Shown piece by piece: positions 15,481 through 63,624 of a stretch of DNA of 64,000 bases; the first letter of the stretch is position 1; each line of letters begins with the position of its first letter. The translations under genes were made by a program, and so were the position numbers. The DNA is taken from the NCBI GenBank assembly GCA_045643285.1, contig JAZUKN010000057.1:10076-74075 (forward strand), in the 5' to 3' direction. The notes under the pieces were generated by a model, which had not been told where the DNA came from, made no database searches, and worked only from the letters and a program-made list of their open reading frames with translations. This DNA is from Eubacteriales bacterium. Lineage in GTDB: Bacteria; Bacillota; Clostridia; Oscillospirales; CAG-272.

Positions 15481-16160
15481 TTGCACGAAGTGCAAACATC
15501 ATTTTTCTTTTACTTGCACAAACCTCATTAAGACAAAAGGAAGAAAACGTTTCACGTTTTCAATTTCATCTTTCTGTCCTGTTCGTTTACGAACGGGCGG
15601 ACGGCGCACAAGCCGAGTTCACTCCGTGAACTCGTCGAGATGCTCCGCATCTCGGTGAGTCACTTTCGCGGACTCCTTGCCAATCCACACGACTTAGGGG
15701 GAAGGTTGCTTCGCTCTATTCACGCCTACCGACTTCGTAAACGAAGTCGTCGAGATGCTCCGCATCTCGGTTGAACCCCTTTGTTTCAGAGTAAATGCAA
15801 CTCAATTATTTATCTTACCATTTAAAAACGACTACGTTTTACTTCATAATGAGCGTCAGCGCGCTATTATTATCGATCTAAATCCTCTACACCGTCGCAC
15901 TCGCTTTGTGACAAAGGGGAGTCCAGAGGGGGAATGAGCTTGCTCCTTCCCCCTTTGGCGGGATGATTCACAAGAAGGCCGCGTCGGTCTTCTTGTGCGC
16001 CCCGCGCGTAGCGGAAAACCGATACTAAACGTAGAGTTTGTGCAGATTCCGCGGGAGGGGAAACCCCTCCCCTACGGTGTATGTGGTGAAAAAAGTGTGA
16101 TTACGCGCGTAGCCGCGAAGAAAACTGAATTTTGAAAACGTCCCCGACGTTTTCTACCTT
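15481..16160. repeat. Double copy of the mosaic hairpin-module repeat (left arm 15513..15812 forward, core 15813..15895, right arm 15896..16160 inverted)
   Basis: Perfect hairpins lie at 15481..15495, 15543..15561, 15578..15597, 15615..15633, 15636..15654, 15730..15749, 15751..15769, 15969..15997, 16053..16071 and 16134..16154. The region is homologous by eye to 44920..45560 and to single copies elsewhere. Confidence 0.9.
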
Positions 16161-16178
16161 ACACCACCGTAGTGGAAA

Positions 16179-20560: not shown

Positions 20561-20841
20561 CTCACGGCTTCGCACGAAATGTCATTTTCCACCGTAGGGC
20601 GGGGGTTTACTCCCGCCGCCGAAAGACTTGAGTTTACTTTATATAGGCAAAAGGTAGAAAACGTCTGCGACGTTTTCAGATTTATTTTTTGTCCTGTTCG
20701 CTTGCGAACGGGCGGACATCGGACAATTCATCCAAACCACACGTTTGGTGTCGTCTTTGTCCTACGCGGACGGCGCACAAGAGCATCGAATCATGGAGTT
20801 CACGAAGAGAACTCGGCTTGTCCGCCGTCCGCGTAAGACAA
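20561..20841 (+). repeat. Single forward copy of the mosaic hairpin-module repeat (truncated at the GRE promoter)
   Basis: Hairpins lie at 20598..20617, 20657..20677, 20693..20712, 20732..20748 and 20797..20813. A long outer inverted repeat gtcctacgcggacggcg / cgccgtccgcgtaagac spans 20759..20839. Confidence 0.85.
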
Positions 20842-20844
20842 ACC

Positions 20845-23904: not shown

Positions 23905-23911
23905 GGTATTC

Positions 23912-23982
23912 ATACGCGAAGCGTATATCATCCGTGAAACGGATATCATCGCGCAGCGATATCATCCGCGAATGCGGATATC
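23912..23982. repeat. Tandem array of four mini-hairpins separated by exactly ATC
   Basis: Hairpins are atacgc-gaa-gcgtat (23912..23926), atccgt-gaa-acggat (23930..23944), atcgc-gca-gcgat (23948..23960) and atccgc-gaat-gcggat (23964..23979). The array starts 8 nt after the GRE stop codon. Confidence 0.85.
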
Positions 23983-23995
23983 ATTATTCTTTAAC

Positions 23996-24535
23996 TTGCA
24001 CAAGCCACGTGGCTTCGCACGAAATACAAATCCACCTCCGGTAGGGGACGGTGTCCTCGACGTCCCGCGGATTTAGGCAAACCTCACTGCTACGCACGAA
24101 AAATCATTCTATACCGTAGGGGAGGGGTTTCCCCTCCCGCGGATTTGCACAAACCTCACAAAGGAAAAGGAAGAAAACGTCGGGAACGTTTTCAAATAAT
24201 CTATTTGTCCTGTTCGTTTACGAACGAGCGGACAGGCGCACGATTTTTCCAAACCGCACGTTTGGCTTCGGTGTGTCCTGTTCGCTTGCGAACGGGCGGA
24301 CGGCGGACAAGCCGAGTTCACTCCGTGAACTCAGTGAACGTCGCCTCCTTGTCAATCTACCCGCTTAGGGGGAAGGGACTTCGTCCTATTCACGCCTCCC
24401 GACTTCGTAAACGAAGTCGTCGAGATGCTTCGCATCTCGGTCTGACTCCCCTTTGTTGCAAAGCGAATGCAAATCTTTTGTTCGCTTTATCAAATTATTC
24501 ATTATTCATTCTTCATTATTCATTATTCATTTCAG
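23996..24535 (+). repeat. Forward copy of the mosaic hairpin-module repeat with an internally duplicated module, ending in AT-rich heptamer repeats
   Basis: Hairpins lie at 24002..24015, 24045..24066, 24120..24138, 24173..24193, 24209..24228, 24249..24265, 24277..24296, 24314..24332, 24400..24419 and 24421..24439. Five attattc-type heptamers occupy 24494..24528. It matches 15513..15812 closely by eye. Confidence 0.9.
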
Positions 24536-25998: not shown

Positions 25999-26037
25999 AA
26001 GACTTTTTTGCTCGTTTTCTGTGAATGATTTTATATC

Positions 26038-26151
26038 CCGTACACGTCCTTGACCTTAGCTTCAAGGTATCTGAGGTAGAAGTCGGGATCGAACGGCTCG
26101 CCGAGGACCTTGTCAAGTATCTCGCACGGCTTGTAAAGCGAGCCGAACTGC
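26038..26151 (-). pseudogene. Orphan duplicate of the last ~37 codons of the M32 carboxypeptidase gene
   Basis: 114 bp align to 27396..27509 with 3 mismatches, all in the first ~25 bp. In the carboxypeptidase frame it reads ...LRYLEAKVKDVYGI-stop, and the substitutions are synonymous. No upstream coding sequence is attached. Confidence 0.85.
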
Positions 26152-26166
26152 GTGGGGATCTGTTTT

Positions 26167-27366
26167 TTATTTCCCTATGCACTTGCGTTCAAGTGCACTG
26201 AGGAATGCGCTTGACGTGAAAATCTGATAGTTACCGACTGTTTCGCCGTTGTCTGCCGGAAGCAGTCTGGTGTTTTCTGTCCCGACGAACAGCTTTGACG
26301 GAGTTGGGACGATAATCAGGATTTTTGTCGTGTCACTTTCAAATGAAAAATCAAATCTTGACAGAATGGGGTACAATTCTGTTTTAAAAAGCCGAAACGT
26401 GTGCAGGCATATTCCGTTTCCGTTTTCGGAAAAAGCAAGCGGCGAACCTTTCCACACTCCTGCAATAATCTTACAGCGGAATTCTTTCTCCCCGACCGAT
26501 ACGCTGAAATTGTAGCCTCTCTGTTCGCGGAACACAGAAGAATAAGGCTTTTTGACTTCGCTCAAAGCTATTGATTCTTTTGAGCAGACGCGGCGCAGAC
26601 TGCGCATAAATCTTCTCTGTTTCAAAAGAGCGCGTGCAAAGACAATCACGATAACCGCAGCTATCACAGACAGCACGGCAATAATTATTTTCACTGCATA
26701 TTCCCGATTTCCTCGCGCTAAGAGCAGCAGAGTACTTGCCAATGGTATGAGACACGCAAATCCCGAAAAGAGAATGAGACAACCGATAAGTACCACTATG
26801 AGATTTTTGATGGTTCTGACAATAGGATTCTTCTTGTTCGCCTTTCCATCATAATGGTCACGTCTCCAACCTTTATGTACATAATAGAATACGCAAAATT
26901 CAATCATGAACAAAAGCACGATGTAAATTACCCAAGAGATAATTTTTGTTTGAATCGGTGACAGAGATGATTTGTCAAGGAATGATCCCGCTATGCAGCC
27001 TAATCCGAAAGAGAACGGCATCACTGCCGATAAAACTGCGAAGCAGGCAAATTCGATTAAAAAGTCAAAAGAGAGGATAATGTTTTTCGATTCGGCGGAG
27101 AAAGTCGATTTCTCTTTGATTTTGTCGAGGTAGTCGCATTTTTTCTCATTGTTATTAACCTCCACTGCGCTCATAACAAGAAAAGTAATCAACAAAAGAA
27201 TGATAAAACCCCACACGGCAATGAAATGATCGCTGGTTTCATACGCCGCTACGGACAGAATTATTTCGAACATAATTTTTACTGCCGTCCAAAATCCGAC
27301 GACAAAAAAGTATGCGATGATCGAAATAAGAAATCGAAAACCTATTCTTTTCGCTTTATCTTCCAT
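26167..27366 (-). CDS. Hypothetical 6-TM membrane protein with ~140-aa C-terminal soluble domain
   Basis: 399 aa with six hydrophobic segments and then a basic linker RRFMRSLRR. I do not recognise the C-terminal domain. The gene is visibly AT-richer than its neighbours and sits between the 114-bp direct repeats. Confidence 0.7.
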   Translation of the reverse strand: MEDKAKRIGFRFLISIIAYFFVVGFWTAVKIMFEIILSVAAYETSDHFIAVWGFIILLLITFLVMSAVEVNNNEKKCDYLDKIKEKSTFSAESKNIILSFDFLIEFACFAVLSAVMPFSFGLGCIAGSFLDKSSLSPIQTKIISWVIYIVLLFMIEFCVFYYVHKGWRRDHYDGKANKKNPIVRTIKNLIVVLIGCLILFSGFACLIPLASTLLLLARGNREYAVKIIIAVLSVIAAVIVIVFARALLKQRRFMRSLRRVCSKESIALSEVKKPYSSVFREQRGYNFSVSVGEKEFRCKIIAGVWKGSPLAFSENGNGICLHTFRLFKTELYPILSRFDFSFESDTTKILIIVPTPSKLFVGTENTRLLPADNGETVGNYQIFTSSAFLSALERKCIGK

Positions 27367-27388
27367 AAAAAATCCTTTAGGGTTCTAT

Positions 27389-28888
27389 TTACACGCCGTA
27401 TACGTCCTTGACTTTCGCTTCAAGGTATCTGAGGTAGAAGTCGGGATCGAACGGCTCGCCGAGGACCTTGTCAAGTATCTCGCACGGCTTGTAAAGCGAG
27501 CCGAACTGCCATATTTCTGCTTTGTTCCACGCATTCACCGGTGCGAAATCGCCTTTTCTTATACAGCCGTCTACATCGACGGTCTTTTTCATTTTATCGA
27601 GGAACTGCGCGCCGTATGCCGAGCCGAGCGCATAGGACGGGAAGTATCCGATCGAGCCGCCCGACCAGTGGCTGTCCTGGAGAACGCCGTGCTTGTCGTC
27701 CGGCACGTCCACACCGAGATATTCTTTGTAGAGCGCGTTCCATGCCGCCGGCAGATCGTGGACGCTGAGCTGTCCTGCCATGACGCGCTTTTCAAGCTCG
27801 TATCTTACCATGACGTGCAGACAGTATGTTACTTCGTCGGCTTCGGTGCGGATCAGCGACGGCTCTGCCTTGTTTACCGCACGGTAGAAGTCCTCTGCGG
27901 TGTGCGCCTTTAGTTCAGGGAACAGCTCGCACAGCTTCGGATAGATGAATTCGCAGTACGCGCGGCTCCGTCCGATAATGTTTTCGTAGAAGCGGCTCTG
28001 GCTTTCGTGGATGCCCATTGAAACTCCGCCGTCGATCGCCGTGAATGCGTACTCGTCACGGCAACCCGTGTCATAAAGCGCGTGACCGCCTTCGTGGATG
28101 ACCGAGTACATCGACGGAACAAAATAGTCCTCGTGATAGTGCGTCGTGATGCGTTCGTCGAGGTGCGAGCCGAGGTCAGTCGTGAACGGATGCTCCGTCT
28201 CTGCGATGCCGACGTGCATGAGATCAAGTCCCATTGTACGCATCAGATAATCGGACAGCTCTCTCTGCTTGTCTATCGGGAAATTACCCCAGAGGAATGA
28301 GTCGTCGACCTGCTTTGTCGCGGCAACTTTTTTGAGCAAGGGAACAAGGCACGCGCGGACTTTTCCGAAAAAGTCGTCGCACACGGCTTTGTTAAGTCCG
28401 TCTTCATATTCACCGAGCCAGTAGTCGTAGGGATCCTTGTCAGGCGCGAAATATCCGGCAAAGCGCTTGTTCGTCTCGAAGATCTTTTCGAGGATAGGCT
28501 CGAAAAGCGCGAAATCGCTCGCTTCTTTTGCTCTGTGCCATACGTCGTCCGCCTCGACGAGCAGTTCCTCGTATGCGATATACTCGTTCATCGGAACTTT
28601 CTGCATCTGACGGATTGATTTGAGAAGCAGAAATACCTCGCGGCGCTCTTCTTCGGTAAGCTCATCCTTGTTTACGTCGAGAAATTCGAGCAGAGCAACG
28701 GTTTCTTCACCCGTCGAGAGCTTGTATTCCTCTTCGGAAAGAACTGCGAGCGTGCGTGCGCGGTTTGCGGCTGTGCCTTTCGGCGCGGTCGTCTGTCCGT
28801 CGTAGAAGATCATCGTGGATGCGTGGGCGTATGCTTTGAGTTTTGTTTGCAGGGTTTTGAGGTTTTCTCTTGCTTCGGTGAGTGTCAT
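27389..28888 (-). CDS. M32 carboxypeptidase (Taq-type thermostable carboxypeptidase 1 family)
   Basis: 499 aa with the zinc motif HEGGHALYD and the M32-typical HESQSRFYEN. Confidence 0.93.
   Translation of the reverse strand: MTLTEARENLKTLQTKLKAYAHASTMIFYDGQTTAPKGTAANRARTLAVLSEEEYKLSTGEETVALLEFLDVNKDELTEEERREVFLLLKSIRQMQKVPMNEYIAYEELLVEADDVWHRAKEASDFALFEPILEKIFETNKRFAGYFAPDKDPYDYWLGEYEDGLNKAVCDDFFGKVRACLVPLLKKVAATKQVDDSFLWGNFPIDKQRELSDYLMRTMGLDLMHVGIAETEHPFTTDLGSHLDERITTHYHEDYFVPSMYSVIHEGGHALYDTGCRDEYAFTAIDGGVSMGIHESQSRFYENIIGRSRAYCEFIYPKLCELFPELKAHTAEDFYRAVNKAEPSLIRTEADEVTYCLHVMVRYELEKRVMAGQLSVHDLPAAWNALYKEYLGVDVPDDKHGVLQDSHWSGGSIGYFPSYALGSAYGAQFLDKMKKTVDVDGCIRKGDFAPVNAWNKAEIWQFGSLYKPCEILDKVLGEPFDPDFYLRYLEAKVKDVYGV
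27396..27509. repeat. Direct-repeat partner of 26038..26151 (functional 3' end of the carboxypeptidase gene)
   Basis: Aligned by eye, about 90 consecutive identical bases plus a 5' part with 3 mismatches. Copy-to-copy offset is 1358 bp. Confidence 0.85.
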
Positions 28889-36096: not shown

Positions 36097-36228
36097 TTTT
36101 TCTCCTTTTTTGGGACGGCGCACTTCTTTTTGCGGTCATACTTCCGTACGCGCGTATCTCACCGTGCGCGAACCGCTCCGCCGTTCCTGTTTTTAATCCA
36201 ATTTTCGACAAATAAATAATATCAAAAA

Positions 36229-36269
36229 ATTATGAACACTTTTTGTGCGAATTATTAACTTTGTGTTAA
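36229..36269 (-). promoter_or_regulatory. Pho-box-like direct repeats upstream of the Na/Pi cotransporter gene
   Basis: The minus strand reads TTAACA-caaag-TTAATA-attcg-CACAAA-aagtg-TTCATA, four hexamers on an 11-bp period. TATTAT follows 9 nt downstream. Confidence 0.4.
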
Positions 36270-36326
36270 ATGATCTCATCCAAAGCCTCGTAAAACGCAC
36301 CCTTGAAAGCGCTGCCATGACTGTTA

Positions 36327-36355
36327 TTGACAAACCGGACGTGCGGTGATATAAT
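36327..36355 (+). promoter_or_regulatory. Sigma-A promoter with extended -10 for greA
   Basis: TTGACA (36327..36332), 17-nt spacer ending TGa, TATAAT (36350..36355). Confidence 0.7.
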
Positions 36356-36399
36356 ACTGTTTACATCAGTGATTCATAATGATTCGGAGGCAAACGAAT

Positions 36400-40538: not shown

Positions 40539-40547
40539 AAGTGAAGA

Positions 40548-40628
40548 TGTGACTTCGTCACAGTGAAGTTTGCCTTCGGCAAGTGATGTTCGGCTTCGCC
40601 GAATGATGTTTTCATACTTCGTATGAAA
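40548..40628. repeat. Tandem array of four mini-hairpins directly after the glnN stop
   Basis: Hairpins are tgtgac-ttc-gtcaca (40548..40562), ttgcc-ttc-ggcaa (40570..40582), ttcggc-ttc-gccgaa (40589..40603) and tttcatac-ttc-gtatgaaa (40610..40628), separated by gtgaagt / gtgatg / tgatgt. A module-B-like hairpin follows at 40638..40666. Confidence 0.85.
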
Positions 40629-40680
40629 GTTAAGGAAGAAAAAACGTAACACGGTTACGTTTTTTCAAATAAACAAAACA

Positions 40681-40712
40681 AAAAATCTGTATCGGAAGAT
40701 ACAGATTTTTTT
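40681..40712. terminator. Bidirectional intrinsic terminator between convergent glnN and M23 peptidase genes
   Basis: aaaaatctgtatc-ggaa-gatacagattttt, a 13-bp stem including the A and T runs. Confidence 0.85.
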
Positions 40713-40740
40713 ACATTAACTGCGCGGAGCACATCATAAC

Positions 40741-40801
40741 TTGCCGAAGGCAATCATCACTTCACGAAGTGAATCATCACTGCTCACTGTGACGTAGTCA
40801 C
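40741..40801. repeat. Mirror-image mini-hairpin array after the M23 peptidase gene stop
   Basis: Hairpins are ttgcc-gaa-ggcaa (40741..40753), ttcac-gaa-gtgaa (40761..40773) and gtgac-gta-gtcac (40789..40801), with tcatcac spacers. The first is the exact reverse complement of 40570..40582. Confidence 0.85.
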
Positions 40802-40807
40802 TTTTCC

Positions 40808-41614
40808 TCAGTCTTCGACTAAATCCTTGAGGAACACTACCTCGACGTATTCCGCAGGGTCTTTCGCCTCTCCGTTTACCGAAAGCTCAAAGTGAACGTG
40901 GTCTTCTTCGCCGCTTTCGATCAGTGCGGTGTCGCCCGATACGCCGATAACGTCACCTTTTGCAACAGTGTCACCGACTGCGTGCATCGAAAGCGTCTCT
41001 TCGGCAAGTCCCTTATATTTCGTCTCGGAACCTCCGGAGTGGGAAACCGCAACCGTCACGCCCATCATCGGATCGTCGTAAACTTCGCTTATCACGCCGT
41101 CAGCCGCCGCGCAGACCGGTGTTCCTGCCGATGCCGCAAAATCAAGTCCGCCATGCGTGCGGTAGTCGTTCATCGTGTACGAAAAAACGGGAGTCGCAAG
41201 GCTCGCGCCCTTTATAACGATAGAATCTACCGGTGCGATGAAGCTCGGCAATACGTCTTCTGCAATTACTTCAACCGTTTCTTCCGGCTCTGCGTCCGTC
41301 TTTTCAGTGGGCTTTGTCTCTTTCGACGGCTTAGACGGCTCGTCCGGCTTTACTTCGGGTGTTGTCTTGCCTTTTTCGTCGGTCTTGTTCTCTTTTTCGG
41401 TCTTTACGTCCGTTTCGGGAGTCTGAGTATCTGTGTTTTCGGTCTTGTTTTCTTCCGACTGCTCCGTCTGCTTCTCAAGCGGAGGATTTTCTTCCGATTT
41501 TCTCTTGTTCGCGCTTCCCGTAACACCGACGAGAACGGCGGACGACGCGAGGATCACCACAAGTGCTCCGAGGAGGAGTTTATTCTGTTTGTTTACTGAC
41601 GTATTGTTTGCCAT
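40808..41614 (-). CDS. M23-family metallopeptidase with N-terminal membrane anchor (possibly SpoIIQ-like)
   Basis: The ATG at 41614 has an AAAGG-type RBS. The protein has a TM helix LLLGALVVILASSAVLV, a low-complexity E/K/T linker, and a LytM domain with HGGLDF and HVHFEL. The ORF-track extension to 41854 has no support. Confidence 0.82.
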   Translation of the reverse strand: MANNTSVNKQNKLLLGALVVILASSAVLVGVTGSANKRKSEENPPLEKQTEQSEENKTENTDTQTPETDVKTEKENKTDEKGKTTPEVKPDEPSKPSKETKPTEKTDAEPEETVEVIAEDVLPSFIAPVDSIVIKGASLATPVFSYTMNDYRTHGGLDFAASAGTPVCAAADGVISEVYDDPMMGVTVAVSHSGGSETKYKGLAEETLSMHAVGDTVAKGDVIGVSGDTALIESGEEDHVHFELSVNGEAKDPAEYVEVVFLKDLVED

Positions 41615-44895: not shown

Positions 44896-44919
44896 GTATT
44901 CCCTTTTTTCTTTGGCAAA

Positions 44920-45560
44920 GAAAGAGAGAAAACGTCAGAGACGTTTTTATTATCCTAACTTGTTTACAAGTGGGCAGACGGGTATTTATCCAAACCGCAC
45001 GTTTGGATTCGTTTTTCCGCTACGCGCGGGGGCGCACAAGAGCGTACCGCGACGCTCTTGTGAATCACCGCGCTTAGGGGGAAGGTCGCTGCGCTCTATT
45101 CCCCCTAAGAACCCCTTTGTTGCAAAGTAATTGCAAATCTATTATTATCTAATCATTTATTAACGATTATGTTATACTTTATAATGAGCGGCAGCGCGCT
45201 ATTATTAACGATCTAAATCCTCGAAAACGTCGCACTCGCTTTGTGACAAGGGAGATTCCAACCGAGATGCGGAGCATCTCGACGACTTCGTTTACGAAGT
45301 CGGTAGGCGTGAATTGACGAAGTCCTTCCCCCTTTGGTTCGGTGATTGACAAGAGCGTCGAATAACGCTCTTGTCCGCCGTCCGCCGCGTATACATATGC
45401 CGGACAAAAAGATGAATTTGAAAACGTCACCGACGTTTTCTACCTTTTGCCGATGTAAAGAGTGTGCAGATCGTTCGGCGGCAGGAGTAACGCGTATACA
45501 TACGCACTGCCCTACGGCATACAGGTGAAGTTCACGCGAAGCCGCAAAATTTGTGCAAAG
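44920..45560. repeat. Second double copy of the mosaic hairpin-module repeat (left arm 44920..45140 forward, core 45141..45230, right arm 45231..45560 inverted)
   Basis: Hairpins lie at 44928..44948, 44959..44970, 44990..45006, 45035..45062, 45073..45109, 45263..45281, 45283..45302, 45348..45375, 45420..45440 and 45492..45505. The core segment 45181..45222 matches 15846..15887 at 40 of 42 positions. Confidence 0.9.
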
Positions 45561-45608
45561 CGCAAAAACGTATTTGCAAAAAACCGCTTAGGTTTTTTCC
45601 TTTTCCCG

Positions 45609-51682: not shown

Positions 51683-51726
51683 GAAGTAAAATGAATATGA
51701 AAGAAGTAGACAAAGTGATCAAAAAA

Positions 51727-51880
51727 ATTTGCATTCACTTTGTAATAAAGGGGAGTCCAGAGGGGGAATGAGCTTGCTCCTTCCCCCTTTGGCGGGTAGA
51801 TTGACAAGAAGGTGACGGTCACCTTCTTGTCCGCCCCGCGCGTAGCGGAAACCATGAAATCGAAAACACGAAGTGTTTTC
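51727..51880 (-). repeat. Single inverted copy of the mosaic hairpin-module repeat (short subtype)
   Basis: Contains gacaagaaggtgac-g-gtcaccttcttgtc (51803..51831) and gaaaacac-gaa-gtgttttc (51862..51880). It nearly matches 15905..16015 by eye. Confidence 0.88.
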
Positions 51881-51965
51881 TTCCCCTTTACTCAAAAAAT
51901 GAATTACAACAAAACAAAAATAGAAAAATAAAAAAAGCATTTTTTACGAAAGGACAGATAAAACC

Positions 51966-53918: not shown

Positions 53919-53942
53919 CTTAATATACACATAAAGGAAAAT

Positions 53943-53971
53943 CACTTCACTTGAAGTGGTTTTCTTTTTTT
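53943..53971 (+). terminator. Intrinsic terminator after the aldolase/SDR gene
   Basis: cacttca-ct-tgaagtg followed by a long T-rich run (gttttcttttttt). Confidence 0.6.
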
Positions 53972-54071
53972 GACCACTCCCTTGCAAAAATAACTTCATT
54001 TATACTTTTAACTACATTTGTGCTATGAATATTCACCAAAAGATGTATATTTTTATTGTTTGAGTTGATAA

Positions 54072-54100
54072 TTGACAAATACTTCACCATTTTATATAAT
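54072..54100 (+). promoter_or_regulatory. Consensus sigma-A promoter for the BlaI-family gene
   Basis: TTGACA (54072..54077), 17-nt spacer, TATAAT (54095..54100), within a ~270-bp AT-rich spacer. Confidence 0.65.
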
Positions 54101-54189
54101 TTTTATAGTAAAGTGGATTGGTGTTTATTTCATTTTGTTTAATTATGTACAAACATTTATATTAAATGAACGTGTAAGGAGACTATAAA

Positions 54190-54660: not shown

Positions 54661-54866
54661 AGAGGAAGAAAACGTCTGAGACGTTTTCTTCCTCTTGCCT
54701 ATGTGAAGTATGTGCAAATCGCCAGACGGGAGACCAATGGTCTCCCCTACGGTGGAAAACGATATTCCGTGCGCAGCCGTGACAATTCTTCGCCGGAAGA
54801 AATAACGTGCGGTTCCGCGCGTAGCCGCAGAAAACAGTTTCTTTCAAAAACGTTTCAAACGTTTTT
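54661..54866 (-). repeat. Inverted partial copy of the mosaic hairpin-module repeat
   Basis: A 16-bp perfect hairpin agaggaagaaaacgtc-tga-gacgttttcttcctct lies at 54661..54695. gggagacc-aat-ggtctccc (54728..54746) is followed by ctacgg, and aaaaacgt-ttcaa-acgttttt lies at 54846..54866. The region is collinear with 16030..16154. Confidence 0.82.
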
Positions 54867-54876
54867 CCCCTTTCGC

Positions 54877-57637: not shown

Positions 57638-57665
57638 AAATCACGTCGAAATGGCGTGATTTTTT
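57638..57665 (+). terminator. Intrinsic terminator after the PPIase gene
   Basis: atcacg / 9-nt loop / cgtgat followed by TTTTTTT, with an A-run upstream. Confidence 0.75.
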
Positions 57666-57673
57666 GATTCAGT

Positions 57674-57924
57674 TGTGACAATCCTTCCGTCACGGCAAGC
57701 CGCGCCACCTCCCTTTGCACAAGGGAGGCTTAAATTGAGTCTCACGCTAAGGCTCCCTTGTGTAAAGGGAGCTGTCAACAAAGTTGACTGAGGGATTGTT
57801 CACCATTACATCAAAGTATTATTATCCCACATCACGACTTTTATCAAGTGAGGCTTTGATTAAGTCTCACGTTAAGGCTCCCTTGTGTAAAGGGAGCTGT
57901 CAACAAAGTTGACTGAGGGATTGT
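57674..57924. repeat. Q-type hairpin modules: one forward unit plus a 66-bp direct repeat of the inverted unit
   Basis: The forward unit is 57674..57728 (cctccctt-tgcac-aagggagg at 57708..57728). The 66-bp repeats are 57734..57799 and 57859..57924, with 2 mismatches and a 125-bp period. Each contains gctccctt-gtgta-aagggagc and gtcaac-aaa-gttgac. Confidence 0.88.
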
Positions 57925-58248
57925 GAAACCTGCTCGTCAATATATTCACACACTTTTTTGAAATTTGTGTTCACGTAGCTGTTGGCAAATCGGATGACTG
58001 TAAGACCGTATTGTTCAAGTAACGCTGTTCGTTCCTCATCGTATTGCTTGCCATCGGCAGTTTCGTGCTGTCGACCGTCAAGCTCAATTACAAGTTTGGC
58101 TTTGGCACAGTAAAAATCAACGATGTATCTCCCGAGTACTTTTCCCGAGAAAAGCGAACAGGATAGGTACTTAGAAAATCATACCATAAATGTTTTTTCT
58201 GAGCATCTTTGCAGTCGGAACAATGCTTTTGTTATGCTTGCTCTCCAT
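57900..58248 (-). pseudogene. DUF559 (Vsr-like endonuclease domain) gene remnant with frame disruptions
   Basis: The minus strand reads MESKHNKSIVPTAKMLRKN.. then (frame change) ..HLWYDFLSTYPVRFSREK then (frame change) VLGRYIVDFYCAKAKLVIELDGRQHETADGKQYDEERTALLEQYGLTVIRFAN... No intact ORF of 60 aa or more is listed in the track. The last 8 codons lie inside repeat copy 57859..57924. Confidence 0.75.
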
Positions 58249-58252
58249 AACT

Positions 58253-59080: not shown

Positions 59081-59179
59081 TATGCTTCGATTATAGCAGG
59101 AATTTGTGAATATTTCAAGAGTAATTCTTTTCCGTTCTTATAACGGTTATCTTATAGTGGTCAATCGCTCGAAAACCGC

Positions 59180-59208
59180 TTGACTTCTCGCCGCCGAGGG
59201 AGTATAAT
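59180..59208 (+). promoter_or_regulatory. Sigma-A promoter for trpS
   Basis: TTGACT (59180..59185), 17-nt spacer, TATAAT (59203..59208). This leaves a leader of only about 40 nt. Confidence 0.65.
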
Positions 59209-59256
59209 TTAGAATAGAATAATAGGAAAAAAACAGTAAAGGTTCGGTTTATTACT

Positions 59257-60261: not shown

Positions 60262-60530
60262 GGCTACGCACGAGGTATCACACACCTGTATACCGTAGGG
60301 GAGGGGTTTCCCCTCCCGCGGAACGACCTTCACATACTTCACATCGGCATAAGGTAGAAAACGTCGGGGACGTTTTCAAATTATTTGTTTTGTCCTACGC
60401 GGACGGCGGACAAGAAGGTGACCGTCACCTTCTTGTCAATCTACCCGCCAAAGGGGGAAGGTCGCTACGCCCACTTCCCACACTGGACTCCCCTTTGATG
60501 CAAAGTAAATGCGAGACTTTCGTTCACTCT
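60262..60530 (+). repeat. Single forward copy of the mosaic hairpin-module repeat (short subtype), followed by AT-rich heptamers
   Basis: Contains gggagggg-ttt-cccctccc (60299..60317), gaaaacgtc-ggg-gacgttttc (60357..60377) and gacaagaaggtgac-c-gtcaccttcttgtc (60409..60437). attattc-type repeats lie at 60543..60560. Confidence 0.88.
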
Positions 60531-60614
60531 GTCCTATTTTTCATTATTCATTATTAATTCTATTTTAACCCAAACTAACAATTTCAACCTAACATAATTC
60601 AAAGGAGCATCACA

Positions 60615-61898: not shown

Positions 61899-61948
61899 GT
61901 CGCGGCATCGGCAAAACAGCCGCAGGATCAATTACATATAACTCAACT

Positions 61949-61989
61949 GACCGGAGGTATTCTCAAACGGATGACCTCCGGTCTTTTTT
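61949..61989 (+). terminator. Intrinsic terminator after the dehydrogenase gene
   Basis: gaccggaggt / 15-nt loop / acctccggtc followed by TTTTTT. Confidence 0.85.
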
Positions 61990-62061
61990 GCGGTTTAGTC
62001 GATCATTTTTTCTATTTTGTGATATAATAATACTGTCAGTTTACCGAAAGGAGCGAACACT

Positions 62062-63497: not shown

Positions 63498-63553
63498 AAG
63501 CAAACTTCTCATAAGGAAGTTTAGTTAAATTTGCTTCGCAGAAAACAAATAAT

Positions 63554-63588
63554 AATCCCCGACAGATTTTTACAGTCTGTCGGGGATT
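63554..63588. terminator. Bidirectional intrinsic terminator between convergent EamA and GNAT genes
   Basis: A 13-bp perfect stem aatccccgacaga / 9-nt loop / tctgtcggggatt, with A-rich and T-rich flanks. Confidence 0.85.
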
Positions 63589-63624
63589 GTTTGTTCTGTT
63601 CGATAAATTGGAATTTATCAATAA

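Follow-up and report, generated by a model that had tools for sequence, protein, structure and literature searches.

The 64-kb stretch of chromosomal DNA analyzed here (51.7% G+C; referred to below as the window) carries a family of hairpin-rich repeats that comprises nine homologous non-coding arms, distributed across seven intergenic gaps and totaling approximately 2.9 kb, or 4.5% of the window. With a probability of about 0.58, we regard these arms as a lineage-restricted, non-autonomous, non-coding repeat family similar to repetitive extragenic palindromic (REP) sequences and bacterial interspersed mosaic elements (BIMEs). The family is apparently undescribed. Its tagged hairpins conform to the rule that defines REP sequences, they are not arranged as the doublets of REPINs (REP doublets forming hairpins), and we do not assign the family to the REPs and their associated tyrosine transposases (RAYTs).

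A self-BLAST of the window revealed pairwise arm identities of 67-87% over 100-380 nt, with E values down to 7e-41. This lowest value was obtained for the pair 24274-24482 and 15575-15810 (77% over 238 nt), and further pairs joined 51731-51851 to 15897-16017 (87%), 60372-60568 to 51867-51674 (79.5%), and 45109-45260 to 15773-15925 (85.6%). The nine blocks that an earlier inspection of the DNA (hereafter the sequence-only reading) had proposed to be related were all linked by these alignments, and they are truly homologous and collinear. Individual modules recurred in a similar manner: AGAAAACGTCNNNGACGTTTTC, the M3 or GAAAACGTC hairpin described below, was found at 7 loci with no more than two mismatches and a 29-nt G-rich hairpin had three exact occurrences in the window, both compared to 0.00 expected by chance, and TTAGGGGGAAGG as well as the CCCCTTTGTTGCAAAG...AAATGCAAATC module were likewise present far above chance. 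The repeat blocks overlap no real gene in the window, and a Pfam analysis of the window's open reading frames (ORFs) detected neither a transposase nor an integrase, as the sequence-only reading had stated when it noted that no such gene accompanies the repeats and that no gene is interrupted by them. The long ORF at 24145, which extends over the fourth arm (A4), was rejected: it is a GNAT gene artefactually extended upstream, with the GNAT domain starting only at residue 146. The distribution of the family turned out to be less dense than had been described. Of the 16 intergenic gaps that measure 150 bp or more, 7 contain a member, including six of the seven largest, which does not amount to most inter-operon gaps, and the supposed presence of the family at every operon boundary after 44.8 kb does not hold for four later gaps (53919-54189, 59081-59256, 61899-62061, and 63498-63624), in which no family member was found.

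When the nine arms were put in one orientation and aligned with MAFFT, and their inner halves aligned a second time, the arm emerged as a polar unit of approximately 300 nt with eight collinear modules (M1-M8), nearly all of which are hairpins, plus optional hairpin cassettes. The outer end is formed by M1 (GGCTWCGCACGAA), followed by M2, in which CCGTAGGG is joined to a variable GC-rich hairpin and GCGG, and by M3 (TTGCACAAAC...AAAGGTAG-AAAACGTC-nnn-GACGTTTT-CAAATT, in short AAGGTAG-AAAACGTC-nnn-GACGTTTT-CAAATT). M4 consists of TTTGTCC and a variable hairpin, to which a CCAAACCGCACGTTTGG hairpin can be added, and in M5 a variable hairpin is enclosed by TACGCGGACGGCGsACAAG and CTTGTsAATC. The CCAAAGGGGGAAGG...TTCCCCCT hairpin of M6 is optionally split by a 45-nt cassette of two hairpins (CGACTTCG-taaa-CGAAGTCG and CGAGATGC-tcc-GCATCTCG), and M7 (ACTCCCCTTTGTTGCAAAGtAAATGCAAATC) precedes the AT-rich tail M8, which is 60-100 nt long and contains TTCATTA-like repeats. 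The module order, which the sequence-only reading had taken to vary freely, is essentially fixed from M1 to M8, with insertions and deletions of cassettes, and the apparent inversion of this order at 16.1 kb (and at 54.8 kb) is due to an extra outer GAAAACGTC hairpin together with part of the next module. Variation between arms consists of the gain or loss of cassettes and of partial duplications, M1-M2 being repeated in tandem in A4, A2 and A8 having an additional M3 at their outer side, and A3 being closed by an inverted M5a. An arm may stand alone or be paired tail-to-tail, in inverted orientation, with a second arm across a conserved AT-rich center, and the two-armed loci at 15481-16170 (element 1) and 44916-45575 (element 2) form composites of 650-700 bp. 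The centers of both elements align in direct orientation with 85.6% identity, the left arm of both composites is devoid of M1-M2, and the right arm of both has the GTCACAAAGCGAGTGCGAC variant of M7. This shared center polarity, together with the common absence of M1-M2 from the left arm and the common M7 variant on the right arm, shows that the 650-700-bp composite itself was copied as a unit.

In element 1, the left arm A1 (15481..15812, + strand) is without the GC-rich REP-like M2 and bears the CGACTTCG/CGAGATGC cassette with two copies of the CGAGATGC hairpin. It is followed by the AT-rich polar center (15813..15895, +), which was aligned to the center of element 2, and by the right arm A2 (15896..16170, -) with M1, M2 (GTAG plus GGGAGGGG/CCCCTCCC at 16049-16077), and the extra outer GTAG-GAAAACGTC hairpin at 16134-16157. 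Element 2 likewise comprises a left arm without M2 that begins at M3 (A5; 44916..45140, +), an AT-rich center homologous to 15813-15895 (45141..45230, +), and a right arm (A6; 45231..45575, -) with M1, a long-loop M2 (GTAG at 45515), M3 (GTAG at 45443), and the cassette. Both AT-rich centers contain a conserved 10-codon mini-ORF, MS(V/G)SALLL(S/T)I, at 15849-15881 and 45184-45216, which is preceded by a TATAAT/CATAAT-like box, has no Shine-Dalgarno sequence, and is probably not translated. Among the single arms, A3 (20561..20841, +) contains M1-M5 and then an inverted copy of module 5a, giving rise to a palindrome at 20756-20842; it is located between the divergent genes for cdaA and the pyruvate formate-lyase (PFL)-activating enzyme, upstream of a TTGACA-17-TATAAT promoter. 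The longest arm, A4 (23996..24535, +), has its M1-M2 unit duplicated head-to-tail with REP-like hairpins at 24039 and 24114, and further contains the cassette and a pair of M4 hairpins; its AT-rich tail, built of TTCATTA repeats, runs to the GNAT start codon. A7 (51683..51885, -) consists of M3-M8 with a tail adjoining the stop codon of a PHP-domain gene and shows compensatory changes in its M3 stem (GAAAACAC/GTGTTTTC), while in A8 (54661..54872, -) M1-M2 (GTAG plus GGGAGACC/GGTCTCCC at 54750) lies between two M3-type hairpins. Finally, A9 (60262..60590, +) is a complete single arm with M1-M8 and tail, which starts right after the TAA stop of trpS and ends shortly before a conserved AAGGAG ribosome-binding site. 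Both orientations relative to neighboring genes are represented, with A4 and A9 in sense and A7 and A8 in antisense.

The similarity to REP sequences is most explicit in the GTAG tags of M2 and M3. According to the canonical rule, a REP is recognized by a fully paired stem of 7 bp or more that is closed by a 2-5-nt loop and preceded, at a distance of 0-2 nt, by GT[AG]G (PMC6006769); long hairpins with an inner stem are also admitted (PMC6006769; PMC3733652). Application of this rule to the window yielded 9 matches compared to 0.58 ± 0.75 in simulated sequence, and eight of these matches correspond to M2 (four) or M3 (four); the geometry is the same in all eight, with GTAG abutting an 8-bp stem (offset 0) that closes a loop of 3 nt. 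In total the window holds 7 copies of M2 and 10 copies of M3, and GTAG stands directly before the stem in all M2 copies, including those in the related contigs L024 and L045-L048. Other M2 copies possess long, internally self-complementary loops and resemble GTAG-REP classes with such loops that have been described previously (PMC3733652). Since two modules fit the formal rule, the comparison with REP sequences is stronger than the sequence-only reading had put it, and the accompanying description of hairpin modules joined by conserved linkers, BIME-like and belonging to no named family, is in line with the conserved linkers and mosaic cassette content of the arms and with the database searches described below.

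Several lines of evidence indicate that the folding potential of the arms is maintained. Folding was much stronger than in shuffled controls: with A9 treated as RNA, the z-scores of its two strands were -4.2 and -5.2, and the two-armed element, treated as single-stranded DNA (ssDNA), reached -11.2. Across 16 aligned copies of the M3 stem, 94.4% of the cells were paired and both-sided changes were found at 4 of the 9 pairs, as exemplified by the replacement of CGTC/GACG by CAC/GTG. Likewise, the complementary stem in the M4 slot comes in at least three unrelated versions (TGTTCG/CGAACG, GCTTG/CAAGC, and GCGTAT/ATACGC), AAGG/CCTT alternates with AGCG/CGCT in the M5 slot, and at least six distinct stems were found in the M2 slot. 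Hairpin potential is thus kept through compensatory changes. As an intrinsic terminator, M3 would be weak at best, its core having only 4 G-C pairs and scoring on both strands, and the promoter matches in the AT-rich tail and center were weak, typical of AT-rich sequence, and in no case consistent across copies.

Additional support for a family of inserted repeats came from the comparison with related bacteria. The proteins most similar to those encoded in the window derive from metagenome-assembled genomes of uncultured "Clostridia / Eubacteriales / Ruminococcaceae bacterium", with the best match of TrpS at 93% identity, and the window is rich in housekeeping genes (ATP synthase, relA/spoT, recJ, cdaA, a PFL-like enzyme with its activase, spoIIR, greA, a type III glutamine synthetase, der, plsY, and trpS). 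The gap between trpS and the alcohol dehydrogenase (ADH) gene, which contains A9, measures 353 bp in the window compared to only 32 bp in L040 (TrpS 93% identical), 28 bp in L041 (92%), 31 bp in L043, and 16 bp in GCA_016648615.1. The contig L043 (31 kb) is syntenic with the window from 40.8 to 61.9 kb, with genes of 73-87% nucleotide identity, and its GHL10-rSAM gap is 189 bp long and consists only of a terminator and a TTGACC-17-TATAAT promoter, while the corresponding gap of the window spans 846 bp and contains a two-armed element. No family members were detected in 20 kb of L043 or in 21 kb of L019. These length differences show that the arms are insertions into intergenic DNA. Left junctions often read CAC|GGC, which is possibly part of the element, and few junctions are clean. 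No terminal inverted repeats (TIRs) were found in the aligned arms; the ends of single arms are unlike each other (GGCTWCGCACGAA and an AT-rich tail, respectively), and the outer ends of the two-armed elements differ as well.

Other relatives carry different or related sequences. Hairpin-rich DNA of another kind fills the trpS-ADH gap in L019 and L023 (236-238 bp) and in L024 (293 bp, with two GTAG hairpins), and simpler GTGAAGAGTGAAG repeats surround the terminators of L043. In L047/L048, a more distant relative whose PFL genes share 84% nucleotide identity with those of the window and whose gene context is otherwise different, related modules were found upstream of the PFL-activating enzyme gene and downstream of PFL, and the GGTAGGGGACG...CGTCCC and GTAGGGGAGACC...GGTCTCCC hairpins are shared with positions 24039 and 54750 of the window. 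L047 was dismissed as an empty-site control, as it is non-syntenic around the PFL genes and provides no empty sites for A1-A4. With related modules present in L047/L048 and none in L043, the family predates the species and is patchily distributed in the clade.

At the strain level, the elements were found at the same sites in the conspecific contigs L042, L044, and L045/L046, which originate from three independent metagenome assemblies (97-99% identity), while segments within them were replaced in L044 and L045. In L044, other family modules, a 128-bp string delimited by TTCCGCGCGTAGCCGC and the palindromic M3 hairpin, take the place of the middle of A8 (54689-54811). In L045, the inner 510 bp of the two-armed element are 99.2% identical to the window, compared to 91-97% at third codon positions of the flanking genes, the outer 150 bp at A5 (44900-45050) show only 62% identity with compensated stems, and the M5 loop of A5 is converted to the version of the opposite arm, A6. 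Segments of 120-150 bp are thus traded among copies from strain to strain, the breakpoints falling within conserved modules, which fits gene conversion or recombination, and the mosaicism of the family results from segment exchange between copies and not from the movement of single modules. Because the replacing segments lack an exact match within the window, the genome must contain additional copies outside it, which partly answers the objection, raised by the sequence-only reading, that the family might be absent from the rest of the genome. Several of the contigs end at repeats: L042 (97.7% nucleotide identity to the window) terminates inside A7, L046 begins just past the M3 hairpin of A6, and L044 terminates at one of the Q-type repeats discussed below, a pattern expected where repeats break assemblies. 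The first 396 nucleotides of L042 (1-396) do not align to the window upstream of 50123, a position inside a methyltransferase gene, and contain an apparent fragment of a reverse-strand ORF; the strain is rearranged here or the assembly is chimeric.

If the REP/BIME-like interpretation is correct, the arms may have been spread in trans by an ssDNA-hairpin-recognizing HUH-Y1 enzyme of the RAYT/TnpA-REP type that would act on the GTAG-tagged M2 and M3, and a secondary role of the arms could be that of RNA hairpins modulating mRNA stability or read-through, as known for REP/BIME sequences. Such a role would presuppose that the arms are co-transcribed, which we infer from their location inside or between operons without strong terminators. 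Group 1 RAYTs are present in Clostridia (PMC5581495). A more specific proposal, which we put forward tentatively and consider rather unlikely, is that the arms are the substrate of a vertically inherited REP/RAYT-type ssDNA transposition in Clostridia that has grown to a 300-700-nt multi-hairpin scaffold with slots refilled by recombination, or alternatively that they are proliferated guide-RNA-like scaffolds of an unseen HUH/TnpB-type element.

A number of observations weigh against the REP/BIME-like interpretation. The tag differs from GTAG in 10 of the 16 aligned M3 copies, with GAAG as the commonest substitute, and other tetranucleotides stand before hairpins about as often as GTAG. M2 occurs singly or head-to-tail (24039/24114; 12285/12341 in L047), unlike the inverted doublets of REPINs, and in each two-armed element it is restricted to the right arm. 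Furthermore, the repeated unit is about 10 times as long as a REP, and no RAYT, IS200-type, or other transposase was found within the 64-kb window or among the annotated genes of related loci. Neither a target-site duplication nor a defined cleavage site was recognized at the trpS-ADH junctions when compared to three empty sites, a comparison that is limited by divergence. Moreover, the 99.2% conservation of the inner element between strains could indicate a cellular function over selfish spread.

The same conservation, exceeding the approximately 95% found at synonymous positions, would be expected if the arms were small RNA genes or an untranslated region (UTR) scaffold that docks an RNA-binding protein, in which case RNA structure would be under selection and the copies would have arisen by duplication. 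The compensatory stem changes and the strongly negative folding z-scores on both strands are compatible with this explanation, as are a conserved T·G wobble found, in arm orientation, at the foot of M4 stems that otherwise differ, and the capacity of CAAAGGGGGAA, as read from its sequence, to pair alternatively with TTCCCCCT or CTCCCCTTTG. However, arms are found in both orientations relative to flanking transcription, a consistent promoter is lacking, and the sole terminator-like signal is the weak M3, which scores on both strands. In addition, entire hairpin cassettes are gained and lost, no Rfam match was obtained even at E<=5, and entire arms are missing in sister species despite the conservation of neighboring genes, so that a structured RNA as the primary identity of the family appears unlikely.

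Two further explanations account for parts of the data. The existence of two composites in which a short AT-rich core is flanked by long inverted arms, and which were evidently duplicated as a unit since asymmetry and core polarity agree between them, their size of approximately 650-700 bp, and the lack of an ORF in the element are reminiscent of a classical MITE (miniature inverted-repeat transposable element), that is, an internally deleted insertion sequence (IS) of the DDE-transposase type with the 270-nt arms as TIRs, movement by cut-and-paste or copy-and-paste with target-site duplication, and the single arms as solo ends left by deletion. We consider this origin quite improbable, given that single arms or irregular combinations occur at 5 of the 7 loci, that the outer ends of the composites differ through the absence of M1-M2 from the left arm and are consequently not inverted repeats, that a target-site duplication was not seen at the one site with clean empty-site comparisons, and that no IS with matching ends was present in the window or in approximately 150 kb of related loci. 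The patch replacements bounded by conserved or palindromic modules, the inverted duplication at the M5 hairpin of A3, the tandem duplication of M1-M2 in A4, and the A6-type loop that the A5 hairpin has acquired in L045 could, on the other hand, have been produced without any dedicated enzyme, through template switching at palindromes, through slipped duplication, and through ectopic gene conversion from one intergenic region to another, with arms that are not mobile at all. Yet gene conversion requires a prior homologous tract and can explain neither how a 328-nt arm first entered a 30-bp spacer nor how a 650-bp composite arrived between a terminator and a promoter, and the conserved collinear order of nine arms over 45 kb implies the copying of whole units; as a complete account of the family, such an enzyme-free process is therefore very doubtful.

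The REP/BIME-like interpretation can be further assessed by comparison with known repeat systems. The window family shares with the REP/BIME sequences of Enterobacteria and Pseudomonas, which are associated with RAYT/TnpA-REP, its extragenic location, a GTAG tag at the base of a short-looped stem of 8 perfectly paired bp, sub-families with alternative complementary stems and long self-complementary loops, the mosaic of linkers, and a content that differs between close lineages. In contrast to REPs of 20-40 nt, the arms of the window measure approximately 300 nt and include at least six further hairpin modules, their REP-like hairpins are single or head-to-tail and not inverted doublets, and no RAYT was seen in the window or at related loci. 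GTAG-type REPs typically number more than 100 copies, scattered through the extragenic space of a whole genome, and are accompanied by a Y1-HUH transposase gene (the RAYT), usually single-copy, with the same REPs on its flanks (a REPtron). BIMEs are mosaics of REPs in alternating orientation with a small set of linker motifs; in the window family, conserved linkers and mosaic cassettes are present, regular alternation of REP orientation is absent, and A8 and positions 8961-9113 of L047 have a REP(-) unit flanked by two oppositely oriented M3 hairpins. IS200/IS605-derived palindrome-associated elements have tnpA or tnpB nearby, or matching ends, and insert 3' of a fixed tetra- or pentanucleotide; neither tnpA nor tnpB occurs in the window. 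The window family resides in a Clostridia lineage, and a survey in 2013 found GTAG REPs only in Proteobacteria, Cyanobacteria, Chloroflexi, and the PVC group, with no Firmicutes listed (PMC3733652). REPINs, as described in Pseudomonas fluorescens, are approximately 100 nt long with two REPs approximately 70 nt apart (PMC3116915; PMC3337134). Similar to REPINs, the window composites have two inverted halves that form a long hairpin, and they appear non-autonomous, mostly vertically inherited, and expanded in a lineage-specific manner; they differ by their length of 650-700 nt, by their AT-rich polar center, and by having the REP-like module on one arm only.

By description, the window family also resembles the BOX elements of pneumococci in its Gram-positive host, its modular build with a variable number of internal modules, and its structured, intergenic nature without an ORF, as well as in the likely co-transcription with neighboring genes. 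BOX elements follow the scheme boxA-boxB(n)-boxC with three module types and no GTAG-tagged hairpins, and we know of no sequence relationship between them and the window family. Correia elements (Neisseria), RUP (pneumococcus), and bcr1 (Bacillus cereus group) have defined TIRs, target-site duplications (TA in the case of Correia), and a recognizable parent IS. These repeats are similar by description in being small, non-coding, intergenic, foldable, present in tens to hundreds of copies, and able to affect neighboring transcripts, but no TIRs, target-site duplications, or parent IS were found for the window family.

The arms had no match in the sequence collections searched. None of them matched Rfam 15, including its large ornate RNAs and the omega-RNA/IS605-associated motifs, either at the gathering score or at E<=5, and no match to the arms was obtained among plasmids and phages by BLAST or in IMG/VR with three pattern scans. 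The 182-aa stop-free frame across A4 had no match, when translated, among 5.8 billion proteins. The M3 pattern AGAAAACGTCNNNGACGTTTTC was found at chance level in 185,579 GTDB representative genomes (18 matches) and in JGI metagenome contigs (14 matches); most of these matches recur at one locus of Limosilactobacillus genomes, and none of them is accompanied by another family module. An exact GAAAACGTC-nnn-GACGTTTTC hairpin with approximately 39 nt of similar flanking sequence was observed on high-coverage contigs of 1.7-1.8 kb from several Limosilactobacillus species, and the same hairpin is present, again without any other module, on one contig of Streptococcus uberis and on several metagenome contigs (contigs with this hairpin: L001, L002, L004, L008, L012, L014, L015, L026, L029, L030, and L039). 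The contigs of the Limosilactobacillus type probably represent a small plasmid or an IS.

Other repeats of the window are distinct from this family. The Q-type repeats, which the sequence-only reading had regarded as related modules, comprise two 87-bp copies with 91% identity within 57663-57932 and a third copy at 1188-1262; they were ruled out as relatives by the lack of any similarity in the self-BLAST. The copies at 57663-57932 are located immediately downstream of a frameshifted DUF559 endonuclease pseudogene at approximately 57945-58250 on the minus strand, whose frames, once joined, match PF04480 with an E value of 1.4e-25. Very short hairpins, separated by GTGAAG/GTGATG/GATATCAT words, form arrays just past stop codons at 23905-23995 and 40539-40808 and at 5064-5296 of L047, and those at 40.5-40.8 kb are symmetric on both strands around two convergent terminators. 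These arrays gave sub-threshold Rfam matches to the Gut-1 RNA motif RF01706 (41.4 and 35.1 bits, compared to a gathering score of 50), and their orientation with the upstream gene, unlike that of the arms, suggests a role as RNA in the 3'-UTR. A 122-bp direct repeat with 95% identity (26030-26151 and 27388-27509), which corresponds to the 3' end of an M32 carboxypeptidase gene, flanks a gene for a predicted membrane protein of 399 aa (26167-27366, -) with only a weak DUF2298 match, a pattern that looks like a gene insertion with a duplicated target. Gene orientation in the window flips at the divergent Na/Pi-cotransporter-greA gap (36124-36378), from nearly all minus between 3 and 36 kb to nearly all plus between 36 and 57 kb.

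REP, BIME, and REPIN systems have been worked out almost wholly in Proteobacteria, and the present family, if correctly interpreted, would extend this phenomenon to abundant, uncultured Clostridia of the gut or rumen type. In this family, a pair of GTAG-tagged hairpins that share the same geometry is combined with six other hairpin modules, and the family would offer a natural system for watching the swapping of modules between near-identical strains. At a practical level, the repeats break metagenome assemblies of this lineage and could serve as strain markers. For the cell, a strongly folding insert of 300-700 nt in operons such as trpS-ADH would be likely to change co-transcription of the adjoining genes. 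A link to RAYTs, if confirmed, would be a real extension of the known range of such systems, since the survey of GTAG REPs includes no Firmicutes.

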